From contig DAOORA010000038.1 of NCBI GenBank assembly GCA_035389045.1, positions 1 through 40,186 of the forward strand: a DNA stretch of 40,186 nt. The letters run 5' to 3'. Below are positions 2,738 through 17,297 of the stretch, in pieces. Each line of letters begins with the position of its first letter. The stretch's first letter is position 1. Made by a program: the position numbers and the translations under genes. The notes under the pieces are model-generated. The model was given only the letters and a program-made list of their open reading frames with translations, ran no database searches and was not told where the DNA came from. Origin of the DNA: Bacteroidales bacterium (GTDB lineage: Bacteria > Bacteroidota > Bacteroidia > Bacteroidales > CAIWKO01).

Positions 2738-4375
2738 ATGGCAAAAGAAATTATTTTCGATACTAAAGCCCGCGAGGCTTTGAAAACAGGTGTGGATGCA
2801 TTATCAAATGCGGTAAAAATCACCCTTGGCCCTAAAGGCCGTAATGTGATCCTCGATAAAAAATACGGGGCTCCTCAAATTACAAAAGACGGGGTAACCG
2901 TTGCAAAAGATATAGAGCTTAAAGATCCCATTGAAAACATGGGAGCCCAGCTGGTGAAAGAAGTCGCCTCCAAAACAGCCGATCTGGCCGGTGACGGAAC
3001 AACAACAGCTACCGTACTGGCTCAGGCAATCATCAGTACCGGCTTAAAAAATGTAACCGCCGGCGCCAACCCTATGGATCTGAAACGCGGAATTGATAAA
3101 GCAGTTCAATCCGTTATTGAAAACCTCAAAAGCCAATCCGTATCGGTAGGCGACAGTTTTGAAAAAATCGAACAGGTAGCCACGATATCAGCAAACAACG
3201 AAAACGCCATAGGCAAACTGATCGCAGAAGCGATGGAAAAAGTAAAAAAAGAAGGCGTAATTACAATTGAAGAAGCCAAAGGAACCGAAACTGTTGTAAA
3301 AGTTGTAGAAGGTATGCAGTTCGACAGAGGTTACATCTCTCCTTATTTTGTAACCGATACCGACAAAATGGAAGCCGTATTTGAAAATCCTTACATCCTG
3401 ATCTATGACAAGAAGATCTCGGTGATGAAAGATTTTCTGCCTATACTGGAAAAAGAAGTCCAGACCGGGCGTCCCCTGCTGATCATTTCCGAAGATGTTG
3501 AAGCGGAAGCTCTTGCTACATTAGTAGTGAACAAACTCAGGGGTTCCCTCAAAATCGCTGCTGTAAAAGCTCCGGGGTTTGGCGACAGAAGAAAAGCCAT
3601 GCTCGAAGATATTGCAATTTTAACCGGAGGAACACTGATATCTGAAGAAACAGGCTATAAACTCGAAGACGCTGAACTCTCTTACCTGGGACAGGCTGAA
3701 AAAGTTGTTGTTGATAAAGACAACACCACCATTGTCAGCGGTAAAGGCAGCACAGAACAAATAAAAGCCCGTGTGGCACAAATTAAAACCCAGATAGAAA
3801 ACACCACTTCCGATTACGATCGTGAAAAACTTCAGGAACGTCTTGCAAAACTCTCCGGTGGCGTGGCCGTTATTCAGGTAGGTGCAGCCAGCGAAGTGGA
3901 AATGAAAGAAAAGAAAGACCGTTTTGACGACGCTCTTAATGCTACCCGCGCAGCTGTTGAAGAAGGTATCGTTCCGGGCGGCGGCATCGCATACTTACGC
4001 ACCATTGATGCACTGTCAAAACTTAAAGGAGATAATGAAGATGAAGAAATTGGTATTGCCATTATAAAACGTGCTTTAGAAGAACCCCTCCGCCAGATTG
4101 TTGCCAATGCAGGCCTGGAAGGGTCAGTAATCGTACAGAAAGTAAAAGAAGGCAAAGGTGATTTCGGATTCAACGCACAGACCGAAAAGTATGAAAACCT
4201 TTACAAATCAGGTGTTATTGACCCTACAAAAGTTACCCGTATAGCCCTCGAAAATGCAGCATCCATTGCAGGCATGTTCCTGACAACCGAATGTGTTATC
4301 AGCGACATTAAAGAAGAAAATCCTGCTCCACCGATGATGAACCCGGGTATGGGCGGCATGGGCGGCATGATGTAA
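2738..4375 (+). CDS. groEL: Chaperonin GroEL
   Basis: [33 protein letters not shown] tail. Confidence 0.99.
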
Positions 4376-12000: not shown

Positions 12001-14115
12001 TTACATTGAAGGTTCTACAAGATACATATCAATAAGCCCTTTGTTTTTGGCTTCCACTTTTCCGCGGTAGGCGCATTTAAAATGATCTTTAACGTATTCA
12101 TACGTGCTGCCTGAAATATTTACCTTCCCGATCACACCCGAAGATTCCATCCGTGAAGCTGTATTTACGGTATCACCCCATATATCATAGGCAAACTTTT
12201 TCGTACCAACGATGCCGGACACCACAGGTCCCGTATGTATACCCAACCTGAGCTCAAAAAAGGGTCTGTTCTCAGCAAGCCGCTCCGTTTTGTATTCTTC
12301 CATAAACCGGCATATCTCAAGGCCGCAACGGACAATATCCACAGGATGGGTTGTATTGGGAACCGGCAGCCCTCCGGCACACATATACGAATCGCCAATG
12401 GTTTTTATTTTTTCGATATGGTATTTTTCCATGATCAGGTCATACGCCCTGAAACAATAATCAAGCTCGGCAACCAGTTTTTCAGGACTCAGCTTCTCGG
12501 AAAATGCAGTAAATCCCTTAAAATCCGTGAAAAGAACGCTGACATTTTCGTAATAACGCGGTTTGGCAAAACCTTCCTTTTTTAGTTCTTCGGCGGTTTC
12601 TTCAGGGAGAATATTCATCAACAGTTTTTCAGACCGGTATTTTTCCGCTGCAATAATGAAATTATCCCGGCGTTTTTGCCTGTAACTCCTTAATATAACG
12701 ACAGCCAGGGCAGCCAGTAACCCAACAACAATGAGCAACGAATTTCTGAAAATCCGCTGCCGGCGCATATCAATAATTTGAATTTGCTCTTCCTGTTTCA
12801 GTATCTCGATCTCTTTCTGCCGCTGATCCGCCTTATATTTATCTTCAGCATCTGCCATGTGCTGGTAAATGTCCGCAGTAAATATGGAATCCTTTTTGGA
12901 CACATAGCGCCTGTAAAATTCCAAAGCCTCCTGGTAATTTTTTTTGGCAGCATATATATCCGAGATCAGCAGGTAATTGTTATAAATATAATCTTTATAT
13001 TTTATACCCTCTGCAATGGCAAGGCTCTTTTTACTGCTTTCAAGAGCTTTATCAAGCAAATTCATATGGTAATAGGCGCTTCCGGTTTCATAAAGCAGAA
13101 TCGACACTATGGATTGTTGTTGGTTTTGTTCGCAGTTTGCCAACGCAGTTTTAAAGTAGTTCAGGGCTGTGTTATATTTTCCTTTCGTTTTATAATATTT
13201 CCCCAAATAAGTATTTGATATGGATATTCCAATATTGTCATTGATTTCCGAAAACAACTCCGCTGCCTTTTTATGATAATAAAAGGCTTTTTCATACTGG
13301 CCGGTCTCAAAATACACCTTGCCCAGGTCATTTAATGAGTAAGCCAATGCTTTGTTGTCATTGCTTTTCCTGTTAATTTCATAAGCCTTTACAAAATACC
13401 CGAGTGCAACATCGTACTGTTTCCAGTCTAAATAGATATTTCCTATACTAGTTAGCAGACTGGATCTGCCTGAGCTTTTATCATTCATTACTTCCGCAAT
13501 TCTCAATGCTTTAAATAAATAATTCAGTGACTGCTTGTAATTCATCTGATCATAATACACATAGCTTATCTCACTCATCACCTGGATAACCCGTGAATAT
13601 AATGAGGCATCATTCATGTCCACATAGATATCCAGAGATCGGATATAAAAACTCATAGCATTGGCATAATCATTTTTATAGTAATAGTACTGGCCGGTAA
13701 GCATTAAATTCCAGGCAAGATTGACAGAATCCCGGATTTCTTTAAAAATGGTTGTTGCCTCAGAAAATGCACTTATGGAAAGGCTATCATTACCCTTCAT
13801 CATATGCAGAAACCCGATCGTCATGTATGATCTGCCGGTCAGGGTGTCATTGTTCAGGTTACGTGAAAGTTTTAATGCTTCCTGAGCATAAATAAAGGAC
13901 GAATCTGCAGAATATGTCAGCGATAACCTGCTCAGCGAAAGCAATATCCTGACCCTCTCCTCTCCTGCCAATCCCGAAAGTTCAGCCTTTAGCTGTTTTA
14001 CTTCCTGCTTTGTCTGGTTTTGGCCATAAGCGGCGGTATTGATACATGTGAAAAAAAACAATATCAAAACAACATTCAGAACGGGAGAAAAAAAAATGTT
14101 ATCCCTGATGTTCAT
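12001..14115 (-). CDS. Class III adenylyl cyclase with signal peptide, TPR array and one TM helix
   Basis: VLFTDFKGFT, EKIKTIGDSYM, YDIWGDTVNTASRMES; K and D purine-specifying residues indicate ATP; TPR repeats; TM LLIVVGLLAALAVVIL. Confidence 0.9.
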   Translation of the reverse strand: MNIRDNIFFSPVLNVVLILFFFTCINTAAYGQNQTKQEVKQLKAELSGLAGEERVRILLSLSRLSLTYSADSSFIYAQEALKLSRNLNNDTLTGRSYMTIGFLHMMKGNDSLSISAFSEATTIFKEIRDSVNLAWNLMLTGQYYYYKNDYANAMSFYIRSLDIYVDMNDASLYSRVIQVMSEISYVYYDQMNYKQSLNYLFKALRIAEVMNDKSSGRSSLLTSIGNIYLDWKQYDVALGYFVKAYEINRKSNDNKALAYSLNDLGKVYFETGQYEKAFYYHKKAAELFSEINDNIGISISNTYLGKYYKTKGKYNTALNYFKTALANCEQNQQQSIVSILLYETGSAYYHMNLLDKALESSKKSLAIAEGIKYKDYIYNNYLLISDIYAAKKNYQEALEFYRRYVSKKDSIFTADIYQHMADAEDKYKADQRQKEIEILKQEEQIQIIDMRRQRIFRNSLLIVVGLLAALAVVILRSYRQKRRDNFIIAAEKYRSEKLLMNILPEETAEELKKEGFAKPRYYENVSVLFTDFKGFTAFSEKLSPEKLVAELDYCFRAYDLIMEKYHIEKIKTIGDSYMCAGGLPVPNTTHPVDIVRCGLEICRFMEEYKTERLAENRPFFELRLGIHTGPVVSGIVGTKKFAYDIWGDTVNTASRMESSGVIGKVNISGSTYEYVKDHFKCAYRGKVEAKNKGLIDMYLVEPSM

Positions 14116-14176
14116 TTATTCAGGCTATATAAAAATTTGAATGTATTGTTTTAGTTACTGTAAAAATAAGTCTTTT

Positions 14177-14208
14177 TTTGATTTTATTAACTTTTTTTAT
14201 TAAATTTG
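14177..14208 (+). promoter_or_regulatory. Consensus Bacteroidota promoter upstream of small peptide 1
   Basis: TTTG(14177-80)-N20-TAAATTTG(14201-08). Confidence 0.7.
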
Positions 14209-14297
14209 CAACAACATAGCGAGTGCCTTGCCTTTGATTTAACATTTTTAAAATATATATTCTTATTTTATAATAATTATTTTAAAATATTATAAGT

Positions 14298-14429
14298 ATG
14301 ATTGCAAAAAAAATTAAACAAAAACCGGCTGTGACTATCAAATATAGTAAAAAAGAAAAAACTCCTGTTGCTGAGAACAAGGAGGTGGTTATAGGGATAA
14401 AACCCACAACCAACCCCCGTACTTTGTGA
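14298..14429 (+). CDS. 43-aa peptide, putative RiPP precursor A1 (not in ORF track)
   Basis: Manual translation MIAKKIKQKPAVTIKYSKKEKTPVAENKEVVIGIKPTTNPRTL*; ungapped paralogy with 14660..14890; own promoter. Confidence 0.75.
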   Translation: MIAKKIKQKPAVTIKYSKKEKTPVAENKEVVIGIKPTTNPRTL

Positions 14430-14539
14430 TGTAAGGTGTATGTGTTGTAATGATTTTTAGAATTATAAAAAAACATTCTTGTCGGGGTTTATTATAATAA
14501 TTGTATGACTGCTGTTATCCAATATTTCAGACAACTGTT

Positions 14540-14568
14540 TTTGTTACGTTAATATTTCATTATCTTTG
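14540..14568 (+). promoter_or_regulatory. Probable promoter upstream of small peptide 2 and the radical SAM gene
   Basis: TTTG(14540-43)-N17-TATCTTTG(14561-68); spacer shorter than usual. Confidence 0.55.
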
Positions 14569-14659
14569 TAAAAACTTATCTTATTCGACACCACCAAAAA
14601 TATAACTTGAACTAATTATCCGGCCCAATTGAACCACTTCACAATAAAAAATCAAAAAC

Positions 14660-14890
14660 ATGAGAACAAAAAACCTAAAACAAAAATTTACAGTTACATT
14701 CGATGATGTCGATTCAGACATGGCGATTGATCTGGAAAACAAAGGTCTTAGCCTGGGTATTAAACCCACAATAAATCCACGAATGCCTCCTTTTATACCC
14801 CCCGTTCCTGTTGTAAAAAAATCAACTACTGCAAAGAAAAAAACTGCTGCAGCACCAAAAAAGAAAATTGTAAAAAAAACAGGAAAATAA
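14660..14890 (+). CDS. 76-aa peptide, putative RiPP precursor A2 with Pro-rich then Lys/Ala-rich tail
   Basis: Shares KQK..VT and ENK....GIKPT.NPR with A1; immediately upstream of radical SAM gene. Confidence 0.75.
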   Translation: MRTKNLKQKFTVTFDDVDSDMAIDLENKGLSLGIKPTINPRMPPFIPPVPVVKKSTTAKKKTAAAPKKKIVKKTGK

Positions 14891-15005
14891 GATCATTCCG
14901 GCTCATCTTACAGCTGAAATATCGAATGGTATTTTATAGGGATATTATATCATTAATGAAATCTCTTTACAATAGATTCCAGTGAGCAATGATTAAGGCT
15001 TGGTA

Positions 15006-16625
15006 ATGGAAATACAGAGCAAACATGCAAGGATCGTATTGAATTGCATGCCACCGGCACAAATCCTTATGCCATCCATTACATTGAATATTTTAAAGGG
15101 CGTCCTGAAACAAAACGGATTCAGATCTGAAATTTTTTATTGGAACTTATTGCTGGAACCTTTTTTTAAACATTGGGACGAAAAGTTTGGTGATGAAAAC
15201 TTTGAATTCGCCCGTTTGCTCCCGTTTGTCTATTGGAAAGCAAANNNNNNNNNNNNNNNNNNNNNNNNNNNNNNNNNNNNNNNNNNNNNNNNNNNNNNNN
15301 NNNNNNNNNNNNNNNNNNNNNNNNNNNNNNNNNNNNNNNNNNNNGTACAGATCAGCCATATGATCAATAAAGATTCTTCAGATTTCAATGAAATACCCGG
15401 ACTGGTATACCGGAAAAAAAAACAACTCGTAATCTCTGAGAAAAAAGAAAGGCAGTACTTCAATCTTGATCATTATCCCGAACCCGATTACGAAGATTTT
15501 TACTCTTTAGTACGTAAGGATCCGGCGAATGAAAAAATGCTGTCTTATCCAGTAGAAGGGTCAAGAGGATGTATCTGGAACAAATGCAAATTCTGTGTGC
15601 TCAACAAGGGTTACAAATACCGGGAACGCGATGTTGAAAGCATAGTTAAAGAAATAGAACTTGCGATTGAAAAATATCACATAGAATATTTCCAATTCAT
15701 GGATAACAGCATCATCGGGGCCGACAAAATGCGACTTGAGTGCCTGCTAAAAAAACTTTCCGTTTCTTATATTGACTGCCCGGATGATTTTAGTCTTGCC
15801 GCCGAAATCATTCCCGCCGGATTGAATGCTTCCTTTTATAAGAAATTGGCGCTGGCCGGATTCAGAATGATGCAGGTCGGCGGCGAATCATTTGCCGATT
15901 CACTGTTAAAAAAAATGAATAAAAAAAATTCTTTTTCCGACAACCTGCTCGCTTATAAATTTTGCCTCAAATACGGCATAAACCCTATCGGTGCAAATAT
16001 TATTACCGGCATTCCCGGCGAAACCCTTAAAGACATAAAAACGTGCATTAAGAACATCCCCTTCCTAAGGTTTTTTGTAAGCAACAGGCAGATACAATTT
16101 ATGGAAAGCCGGTTGGCGCTCGATAAACACTCCGTTTTCTACAGGGAAATAAACGAAAATGAAAAGGAGAAATATACTGATCATTTCTTTTTTAATTACC
16201 TTCCACATTCCTTGATTGCTAAAATGAACCGCTTTGACCTGTTTCATTTCAGTAAAAACAAATCACCAAAGCAAAAAGAATTATGGGATGAGTTTTTTAA
16301 AATACTACAAAAATATCATCGGGCAAAACTTTCTTATAAACTTTACGACTATGGAAATGTAATTCAGTTTGAAGAATTATACAACAATATTAAAACCGAT
16401 GCGGTTGTTTTTGACAAGCCCGAACAATGGCAGATTCTGGTAAATGCAAACTCACAATTGCTTTCCTTTGATGAAATGATGCAATTATTAAAGAACAAAT
16501 ACAAAAACACAACACCAAAAAAACTAAAAACCATGATGAATGAATTAAAATCTCATCATCTGCTTTATTTTGACGAAAATTACAACAAAATAATTGCTGT
16601 CATTGATACGGATTGTCTCCTTTGA
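15006..16625 (+). CDS. B12-binding-type radical SAM enzyme resembling RiPP C-methyltransferases (spans assembly gap)
   Basis: N-terminal MPP....PS..L..LK..L...G; EGSRGCIWNKCKFC (Cx4Cx2C); FMDN, QVGGESF....LKKMNK, NIITGIPGET; start set at ATG 15006 rather than TTG 15000. Confidence 0.8.
   Translation: MEIQSKHARIVLNCMPPAQILMPSITLNILKGVLKQNGFRSEIFYWNLLLEPFFKHWDEKFGDENFEFARLLPFVYWKAXXXXXXXXXXXXXXXXXXXXXXXXXXXXXXXXXXVQISHMINKDSSDFNEIPGLVYRKKKQLVISEKKERQYFNLDHYPEPDYEDFYSLVRKDPANEKMLSYPVEGSRGCIWNKCKFCVLNKGYKYRERDVESIVKEIELAIEKYHIEYFQFMDNSIIGADKMRLECLLKKLSVSYIDCPDDFSLAAEIIPAGLNASFYKKLALAGFRMMQVGGESFADSLLKKMNKKNSFSDNLLAYKFCLKYGINPIGANIITGIPGETLKDIKTCIKNIPFLRFFVSNRQIQFMESRLALDKHSVFYREINENEKEKYTDHFFFNYLPHSLIAKMNRFDLFHFSKNKSPKQKELWDEFFKILQKYHRAKLSYKLYDYGNVIQFEELYNNIKTDAVVFDKPEQWQILVNANSQLLSFDEMMQLLKNKYKNTTPKKLKTMMNELKSHHLLYFDENYNKIIAVIDTDCLL
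15245..15344. other. Scaffold gap (100 N)
   Basis: Run of exactly 100 N. Confidence 0.99.
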
Positions 16626-16709: not shown

Positions 16710-17297
16710 ATGAACCTCGACGCGGCAACATCTTATGCGATCAAACAACTCGAACCCATCGAAAAGACGGTTTATTATTATCATAACGTATACCATGCCC
16801 TTGATGTTTTTAAATCAGTAGCGGAATATGGTCTTTCCGAAAAAATTAACGGAACAGACCTCATGTTACTGAAAACAGCTGCGATTTTCCACGACATCGG
16901 AATTATTAATTCGTACAATGCCCATGAAGAAGAGTCTGTGCGTATCATCCACGAAGTTCTACCCGGATTTGATTACAGCGTCCAGCAAATTGATGCTGTT
17001 GGGAAATTGATTATGGCAACAAAAATGCCCACAAATCCCGGGAATGATCTCGAAAAATTAATATGTGATGCAGACCTCGACTACTTGGGCCGTGAGGATT
17101 ACATTGAAATATCCGACCGGCTGAAACGCGAGATGGAGGTGATCAACAGAAAAAAATTCTCAGCCGCAGAATGGCTTGATTTTCAACTTGGTTTCCTGGT
17201 TGCACACAACTATTATTCTCAGACTGCCCGCTCCCTTAGAAATGACGGTAAACTATTAAATATTATTAAAATTCAGAAATTATTAAAAAAAGTATAA
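16710..17297 (+). CDS. HD-domain metal-dependent phosphohydrolase
   Basis: YHN..H..DV, FHDIG, HEEES, MATK, CDADLDYLG. Confidence 0.88.
   Translation: MNLDAATSYAIKQLEPIEKTVYYYHNVYHALDVFKSVAEYGLSEKINGTDLMLLKTAAIFHDIGIINSYNAHEEESVRIIHEVLPGFDYSVQQIDAVGKLIMATKMPTNPGNDLEKLICDADLDYLGREDYIEISDRLKREMEVINRKKFSAAEWLDFQLGFLVAHNYYSQTARSLRNDGKLLNIIKIQKLLKKV

Follow-up and report, generated by a model that had tools for sequence, protein, structure and literature searches.

Directly upstream of a radical S-adenosylmethionine (SAM) gene in a Bacteroidales genome lie two short open reading frames (ORFs) on the same strand. The question raised by this locus is whether the peptides they encode are substrates of the enzyme and, if so, what is done to them. 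The window, that is, the whole stretch of DNA analysed here, comprises 40,186 nucleotides (contig DAOORA010000038.1 of GenBank assembly GCA_035389045.1, positions 1 to 40,186 of the forward strand) and belongs to a 96.3% complete genome (G000). Cobalamin radical SAM enzymes alkylate unactivated carbons, which is among the hardest of peptide reactions, and only a handful of their peptide substrates have been defined. Uncharacterised radical SAM peptide cassettes are numerous.

The two ORFs, here named pepA and pepB, are real genes under selection, and peptides and enzyme are passed on, and lost, as a set. The chances appear about even that the three genes form a self-contained cassette, in which two paralogous precursor-type peptides are modified post-translationally by a class-B-type radical SAM enzyme. 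The kind of system is already known: a ribosomal peptide paired with a class-B-type radical SAM maturase. What is undescribed in the sources searched is the peptide family, its invariant KPTxNPR segment, and the layout of two paralogues with two probable promoters. The same holds for the basic follower tail, the absence of export genes, and the branch of sub-threshold enzymes with a CX4CX2C motif. The genes and their main segments are as follows.

14298-14429, plus strand: pepA, 43 aa, MIAKKIKQKPAVTIKYSKKEKTPVAENKEVVIGIKPTTNPRTL; a short precursor-like peptide with a Lys-rich, variable N-terminal part
14394-14426, plus strand: C-terminus of pepA (G33-L43), GIKPTTNPRTL
14660-14890, plus strand: pepB, 76 aa; a long precursor-like peptide with a leader carrying a conserved K-[FY]-T-V-T-F
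14756-14782, plus strand: pepB motif, GIKPTINPR
14783-14887, plus strand: Pro-rich and Lys-rich tail of pepB
15006-16625, plus strand: gene for a radical SAM enzyme of class B (cobalamin) type, with an ATG start set by homologues (MEIQSKHARIVLNCMPPAQ...) and a scaffold gap inside

The peptides align without gaps across their first 42 columns, 18 of which are invariant (M1, K4, K7, Q8, K9, V12, T13, E26, N27, K28, G33, I34, K35, P36, T37, N39, P40, and R41). The segment common to both is G-I-K-P-T-(T/I)-N-P-R, which contains neither Cys nor an aromatic residue. The enzyme ORF, listed as 15000/15006-16625, begins 115 nt past the end of pepB.

Orthologues of the pair were sought around homologues of the enzyme. 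An enzyme-profile scan of 185,579 species genomes yielded 79 loci, and a six-frame motif scan found the motif in one of them (L010), where the enzyme is 57% identical and both peptides occur in the same order. A metagenome scan yielded a further 13 loci, 10 of which had upstream sequence and were examined; L096 and L099 (enzyme 3' end only) and L100 (a 28% partial match) were set aside. The pair is present in seven of these ten, namely L088, which carries the exact peptides of the window, and L089 to L094. Merging identical copies leaves five versions (window and L088; L089; L090 and L091; L092, L093, and L010; L094). The pair thus lies upstream of an orthologous enzyme in four species besides that of the window, and every close enzyme homologue (57-67% identity) for which upstream DNA is available carries it.

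Across these versions, the pepA product has a constant length of 43 aa and the C-terminus G[IV]KPTTNPRT[LI] in each of the five, while that of pepB ranges from 74 to 83 aa and carries G[IV]KPTINPR[TM]P followed by a Lys-rich tail. The longest form, the L089 orthologue of pepB (3082-3333), has a duplication of about 10 residues within the strand segment of its leader (FVVTYHNVEE / FVVTFNNVGEE), giving 83 aa. All ten peptides have G-[IV]-K-P-T-[TI]-N-P-R, and all ten keep M1, K4, K9, G33, K35, P36, T37, N39, P40, and R41. In the DNA under the motif, most third positions differ among species, and Arg alternates between CGN and AGR codons. Proportions of nonsynonymous (pN) and synonymous (pS) differences, obtained by Nei-Gojobori counting, agree with this pattern. 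For pepA residues 33-43, pS is 0.67-1.05 (0.22 in the closest pair) and pN 0-0.15, and for the pepB motif pS is 0.43-0.88 and pN 0-0.05. Between distant species, leaders and tail have a pN of 0.33-0.48. Selection therefore acts at the protein level and is strongest on the shared segment, where it is strongly purifying. Two other accounts of these ORFs were considered and rejected: the motif is not a DNA or RNA element, as third-position and CGN/AGR changes keep the protein sequence, and pepA is not a decaying duplicate of pepB, given its 43 aa in five of five species and its invariant C-terminus.

Back-translated, the motif has exactly two matches in the 4.46-Mb genome of the window, where a reversed-pattern control gave none. 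When 1.84 billion representative proteins were searched exhaustively (HMMER) with a profile of the ten peptides, six proteins were returned, three of the pepB type and three of the pepA type. A word-indexed protein search with a two-peptide profile recovered just the two peptides of the window among seven candidates. The orthologous small ORFs have evidently been left uncalled in most protein records. Neither peptide matches Pfam or NCBIfam at E<=1, and at that threshold the 32-residue leaders show no NHLP (nitrile-hydratase-like) or Nif11-like leader in either database. Similarly, no Gly-Gly leader family was matched in NCBIfam at E<=1; both peptides have one invariant glycine, Gly33, after variable residues. 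The pepB product is probably unstructured, as far as its Atlas model goes (predicted local distance difference test, pLDDT, 0.44), and a Protein Atlas look-up gave no usable feature match, all structure matches having a template modelling (TM) score below 0.5.

In the searched literature, which lies outside subscription-only papers and supplements, the strings KPTTNPR and KPTINPR had no match, and matches to GVKPT or GIKPT were unrelated. Judged by title or abstract, that literature holds no similar system among the B12 radical SAM products of Bacteroidetes/Bacteroidota that belong to the peptides made on the ribosome and modified after translation (RiPPs). Its matches for TIGR03975 are, by title and abstract, metagenome surveys of biosynthetic gene clusters.

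The link between peptides and enzyme is seen most clearly in their joint distribution. In a family sample of 21 genomes, the enzyme (presence threshold E<=1e-30) occurs in five, all from one uncultured Bacteroidales genus: the genome of the window and four of 15 other species. The back-translated motif occurs in the same five, as two copies each, on the contig and strand of the enzyme and a few hundred bases upstream of it. The other 16 genomes have neither enzyme nor motif, and the reversed-pattern control gave no match. Among 401 genomes drawn evenly across the order, the motif was found in G000 alone. An enzyme-less genome of the same genus (G396) retains the syntenic site, with a divergent adenylate cyclase gene, an HD gene (73% identical), and a Usp gene (78%). 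What is left of the radical SAM gene there is its last 66 codons, at 64% identity and with stops upstream (L120, G396:C20, about 3815-4012, minus strand), and the site bears no trace of the peptide genes. It is apparently a deletion scar, from which the peptide genes and most of the enzyme gene were removed together. Since the cyclase and HD genes are direct neighbours where the cassette is deleted, the cassette may have been inserted between them.

An earlier note on this DNA had described two plus-strand ORFs upstream of a radical SAM gene, aligned without gaps and with 18 identities, which is borne out, over 42 columns. The similarity is not due to chance, given its recurrence in four further species with the motif in ten of ten peptides over varying third positions. 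Its claim that the peptides belong with the enzyme also stands, on the shared presence in five of 21 genomes, the joint loss in G396, and the homologues at 57-67% identity. So does the novelty of the motif among described classes, in view of the Pfam, NCBIfam, and literature searches and of six proteins in 1.84 billion. The note had further expected GIKPxxNP peptides beside homologous enzymes and few such peptides away from them. The six-frame scan found the former, and peptides without the enzyme were not found in the 21 family genomes. The expectation holds for enzymes at 57-67% identity and finds its limit at 50-51% (L009 and L095), where a motif-less peptide is present instead; none of the outcomes that the note had named as refuting was observed.

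The enzyme gene of the window is interrupted by a gap in the assembly, and three of its features are needed in what follows.

15245-15344, window sequence: run of 100 N, a scaffold gap within the enzyme gene
15570-15596, plus strand: coding for C-I-W-N-K-C-K-F-C, the [4Fe-4S] cluster motif (CX4CX2C)
16413-16622, plus strand: winged-helix-like domain at the C-terminus of the enzyme (about residues 549-618), which may bind the peptides

The full-length enzyme product (P0001) has 618 aa from the called start, with 65 residues before the gap and 426 after it, and the gap consequently hides 127 codons, not 33; the hidden part holds the region of the B12 domain. The 541-aa enzyme ORF is an artefact rather than a real protein, the 100 N happening to preserve the reading frame. 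By a wide margin, the best NCBIfam match of P0001 is TIGR03975, 'RiPP maturation radical SAM C-methyltransferase', to which residues 1-604 align in a single stretch over positions 6-599 of 606. The Radical_SAM domain (PF04055) scores 64.6 bits against a cut-off of 29.5. Of the 36 proteins P0001-P0036, 35 carry the cluster motif C-x-W-x-x-C-x-F-C and one, the 325-aa fragment P0018, lacks it; C268, C273, and C276 are invariant in 31 homologues. The resulting CX4CX2C spacing is non-canonical, and more distant matches have CX7CX2C or CX3CX2C.

An AlphaFold (AF2) model of the enzyme, based on a 31-sequence alignment, reached a pLDDT of 92.1 and a predicted TM score of 0.90. It is laid out as an N-terminal helical part, a Rossmann/B12-like domain, a radical SAM barrel, and a C-terminal domain. 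The top fold matches are all cobalamin radical SAM enzymes, namely TsrM (E 7.9e-15), OxsB, MgmA, TokK, and CysS, over 370-509 alignment columns; AprD4, MiaB, and RimO come next. A profile search of the Protein Data Bank sequences returns the same cobalamin radical SAM set, and, as a pointer to cofactor supply, the genome of the window has a cobalamin riboswitch (94.4 bits). The last 124 residues are modelled at a pLDDT of 93.5 and comprise a helix, three strands, and a winged helix. This domain resembles many winged-helix proteins and regulators (Z 8-10.3), with a best Foldseek E of 0.012 and nothing specific. Because these matches are generic, a role in peptide docking is offered as a suggestion for this modelled domain. 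Among the matches listed for it there is no structure of a RiPP recognition element (RRE), which is no evidence that the domain is not an RRE. A complex prediction of the enzyme (A3) with pepA (A5), with controls absent, scored 0.01 against a mark of 0.32 and weighs neither way.

Beyond the close homologues, the enzyme belongs to a broader branch whose members pair with other peptides. In a quick tree of 39 rows, which leaves out the fragments P0018 and P0030 (each shorter than 480 aa), the enzymes that accompany the pair form one clade (Shimodaira-Hasegawa-like approximate likelihood ratio test 98) within a 17-member group (100). At L009 (3526-3819) and L095 (58-381), the enzymes are 50-51% identical, and each follows a single ORF of 97-107 aa with a Lys-rich tail and a common P-[PI]-K-G-[FY]-E element. 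The synteny at L009 is like that of the window, with cyclase, HD, and Usp genes, and at L095 peptide and enzyme are kept among different neighbours (an SPOR/outer-membrane protein gene and an aminotransferase gene). The ORFs at these two loci represent a second unannotated candidate substrate family, and a search with the L009 peptide returned only that peptide itself.

Among relatives at about 33% identity, 56 loci were inspected roughly, and peptides with a Gly-Gly (GG) leader turned up directly upstream in L012, L019, L074, and L097. Fifteen neighbour proteins of the 57 ORFs in seven such loci were scanned. L097 (842-7570) has a CarboxypepD_reg/outer-membrane beta-barrel gene and a C39-peptidase ATP-binding cassette (ABC) exporter, a further radical SAM gene and an ABC transporter are present at L019, and L012 and L017 have one outer-membrane beta-barrel gene each. 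The presence of GG-leader peptides and an exporter near these relatives ties the wider enzyme clade to classical exported RiPPs.

Two further features bear on how the cassette is expressed.

14201-14208, plus strand: TAAATTTG, -7 promoter box (TAnnTTTG), 97 nt upstream of pepA
14561-14568, plus strand: TATCTTTG, -7 promoter-like box, 99 nt upstream of pepB

The sequence TAnnTTTG, which we take to be the Bacteroidetes -7 promoter consensus, has a background of 0.67 per kb per strand in the window. It precedes pepA in five of five species, 80-103 nt away, and pepB in four of five, 71-111 nt away; within 200 nt upstream of the enzyme it is found in none of the five. As boxes precede both peptide genes and none lies near the enzyme, each peptide gene probably has its own promoter, the enzyme being read through from pepB. 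A terminator scan of the plus strand after pepA and after pepB gave nothing convincing, and an Rfam scan of 14050-15100 gave no match at E<=1. Contigs from three activated-sludge metatranscriptome runs cover L088 3205-3509, that is, from the 3' part of pepB through the start of the enzyme gene, and the same set covers the HD and Usp genes at 99-100% identity. RNA libraries may contain DNA, so this coverage is a weak hint of transcription. No RNA contig lies on pepA, on the cyclase gene, or on most of the enzyme gene; as these are assembled contigs, an uncovered part says nothing.

According to the proposal, the enzyme would bind each peptide at its N-terminal part, perhaps by means of the winged-helix domain at the C-terminus of the enzyme. 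Hydrogen would then be abstracted by a 5'-deoxyadenosyl radical from an unactivated sp3 carbon within G-[IV]-K-P-T-[TI]-N-P-R, and methylcobalamin would donate a methyl group to that carbon, in one or several C-methylations. The product of pepA would be short and end in the modified segment, and in that of pepB the modified segment would be followed by a cationic Pro/Lys tail. The parts of this proposal differ in strength. The peptides are very probably substrates of the enzyme. If they are, the modified site probably falls within the motif, and methylation is favoured slightly as the chemistry. As for the earlier note, its proposals of C-methylation and of the motif as modified core or recognition element stay at the level of inference.

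Several results weigh against the cassette as proposed. P0001 scores 209.7 bits against TIGR03975, under the curated cut-off of 281.85; the full-length P0002, which is 67% identical to it, scores 211.1 bits, and eight of nine scanned homologues lie under the cut-off (171.8-223.4 bits), with only P0037 passing (382.7). The B12-binding domain (PF02310) scores 23.9 bits against a threshold of 32.1 and matches model positions 71-120 of 121, the last 50, so that cobalamin use is not secured. The earlier note had spoken of a TIGR03975-type enzyme and of a B12-type radical SAM enzyme. The best family, the end-to-end match, and a fold nearest to cobalamin radical SAM enzymes uphold these labels, and the two scores below their thresholds do not. 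An enzyme that performs non-methyl chemistry (C-C or C-N cross-linking, epimerisation, or radical rearrangement), maybe without cobalamin, would account for the weak B12 domain. It would also suit the tree, in which a long branch with 100% support separates the CX4CX2C clade from the TIGR03975-passing P0037 and from the CX7CX2C proteins. Class B enzymes such as OxsB and PbsB, and the class-B-like AprD4, do carry out non-methylation reactions; PbsB, a B12 radical SAM enzyme, makes a C-C cross-link, according to the accessible part of its report (PMC12257519). This explanation is nevertheless unlikely. The best-scoring family is named for RiPP C-methyltransferases and matches from end to end, the motif offers no Cys or aromatic residue for the known types of cross-link, and most characterised peptide-acting class B enzymes are methylases, as far as the available portions of reviews indicate.

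A similarly low probability attaches to the motif being a docking element, with the chemistry elsewhere, either in the N-terminal part, as in a follower-type layout, or in the Pro/Lys tail of pepB. RiPP precursors often conserve their recognition sequence and vary their core, and in many families it is the stretch bound by the enzyme that is kept. All ten peptides share M1, K4, and K9 as well. Moreover, the peptides at L009 and L095 lack the motif and yet pair with enzymes that are 50-51% identical, which suggests that the substrate-binding part may have co-evolved. Bottromycin reportedly combines a follower peptide with three B12 radical SAM methylases. BotRMT1-3 and proline methylation are named in the accessible part of a review. 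Against a docking role, pN outside the motif of pepA is 0.41-0.48 between distant species, which would leave few constant target residues there, and both paralogues retain the same nine residues while leader and tail drift.

The same enzyme-substrate pair could also yield a product that stays inside the cell, as modified small, basic, disordered peptides that might bind nucleic acid or the ribosome through a Lys-rich tail, for example. No protease, exporter, or immunity gene was found in any of seven distinct contexts (neighbours were scanned in the window, L009, and L095; at L089, L090, and L092 ORF sizes match the neighbours of the window), and no Peptidase_C39 (PF03412) domain in the G000 genome. 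These absences count against an exported product, all the more as relatives at about 33% identity do have the C39-ABC exporter and an outer-membrane barrel beside GG-leader peptides. The pepB product and the L009 and L095 peptides have only the Lys-rich tail in common, the genes alongside (cyclase, HD, Usp) serve housekeeping or signalling, and the top fold matches include MgmA, a class B enzyme that modifies a protein. We nonetheless regard an intracellular product as a live alternative that is rather unlikely, though a little less so than the two preceding ones. The patchiness of the system within the genus (five of 16 species) and its clean loss in one genome suit an accessory trait better than a core cellular protein; pepA, without a tail, stops two residues past the motif; a pair of paralogous short precursors is what RiPPs typically have; and RiPPs commonly use generic proteases and exporters encoded elsewhere. 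Processing or export genes elsewhere in the genome could still serve the cassette. A stronger version, in which non-exported, chemically altered cationic peptides act inside the producer, on nucleic acid or the ribosome for instance, and make up a new peptide family of the CX4CX2C branch, is distinctly unlikely.

It is very unlikely that the small ORFs are not substrates at all, but unrelated small proteins or regulatory upstream ORFs that share an insertion, the true substrate lying elsewhere. In favour of this reading, the whole neighbourhood is syntenic across the genus, which makes adjacency weak evidence by itself. Presence and absence of peptides and enzyme, however, coincide in 21 of 21 family genomes and on the same strand, G396 lacks the peptide genes along with most of the enzyme gene, and L095 retains peptide and enzyme in another neighbourhood. 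The peptides were found nowhere else among the 1.84 billion representatives, and protein-level selection on the motif speaks against a merely regulatory upstream ORF.

The three-gene cassette, as proposed, can be compared with several known systems. It resembles the TIGR03975 systems of the PoyB/PoyC type, which act on proteusins, in its best family, in the end-to-end alignment including N- and C-terminal extensions, in domain layout, and in the small peptide genes adjacent to the enzyme. It differs from them in its score below the family cut-off and in its cluster motif, CX4CX2C, that of PoyC being a special Cx7Cx2C in the accessible part of the source (PMC11285071). The likeness to PoyC drawn in the earlier note consequently survives in the family match and not in the cluster motif. 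Unlike proteusins, the window has precursors without an NHLP or Nif11 leader, and no epimerase, N-methyltransferase, or protease gene lies beside the enzyme.

A second known system is that of clavusporin, from Streptomyces, with the precursor MpcA. As described in the accessible part of its report, the B12 radical SAM enzyme MpcB beta-methylates KPSVGITITVPFR seven to eight times, and long precursors, with a follower, co-exist with short ones (PMC10849626). The likeness lies in a short precursor whose Cys-free core is rich in K, P, T, I, V, and R, as well as in the occurrence of long and short types. The mpc cluster, to judge from the same portion of that report, also has a major facilitator superfamily transporter, an S9 peptidase, and a DUF5825 partner (MpcC), none of which is found at the window. 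The Mpc follower is acidic whereas the tail at the window is basic, and the phyla differ. In function, clavusporin is a close precedent.

The Bacteroidota GG-leader clusters (L097, L012, L019, and L074) share with the window the CX4CX2C enzyme clade and a small peptide gene directly upstream. Their leaders end in GG, in contrast to the single invariant Gly of the window peptides, and they have a C39-ABC exporter (L097) and a barrel gene (L097 and L012; L017 too), none of which is present at the window. The class B methylases that modify methyl-coenzyme M reductase (MgmA/QCMT) belong to the same fold class, MgmA (9ccb) matching with an E of 1.7e-12, and what they do resembles the proposal: side-chain C-methylation of a ribosomally made polypeptide, in their case one retained by the cell. 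They act on a large, folded subunit of an enzyme and not on a dedicated small peptide, and by sequence they are weakly related (TIGR04014 scores 50.9 bits, its cut-off being 360). Mmp10 is another class B radical SAM methylase of methyl-coenzyme M reductase. The cassette therefore falls outside TIGR03975, the proteusins, and the GG-Bacteroidales precursors (presumably TIGR04149), as it fails a tested defining feature of each.

The cassette offers a minimal test bed that can be synthesised, consisting of two short peptides, one enzyme, and an invariant nine-residue candidate target. It comes with natural controls, in the form of paralogues with and without the tail and of relatives, about 50% identical, whose partner peptides are different. 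If Pro, Thr, Asn, Lys, or Arg were methylated, the substrate rules of the enzyme class would widen; if the reaction were a different one, the chemistry would be new. A product that remained in the cell would blur the line between natural-product biosynthesis and protein modification. Should the peptides form an intracellular family, RiPP-like modification would serve cell physiology and not warfare, possibly through unseen chemistry on Pro, Thr, Asn, or Arg side chains. The system has been found in a few uncultured Bacteroidales from sludge and digesters, and because it is confined to them, its ecological weight is probably small.

Among the remaining observations, the cassette of the window is flanked by a TPR-adenylate/guanylate cyclase gene (12001-14115, minus strand) and an HD-domain gene (16710-17297, plus strand), with a Usp gene nearby. 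The orthologue of the HD gene at L009 matches weakly to phosphodiesterase-like proteins. On another contig of the same genome, a separate locus (L122, G000:C27, 3808-9750) contains four tandem class-B-like radical SAM genes of 506, 510, 482, and 481 aa. They score under every NCBIfam cut-off, and their best partial matches are HpnJ, BchE, and ApyD.

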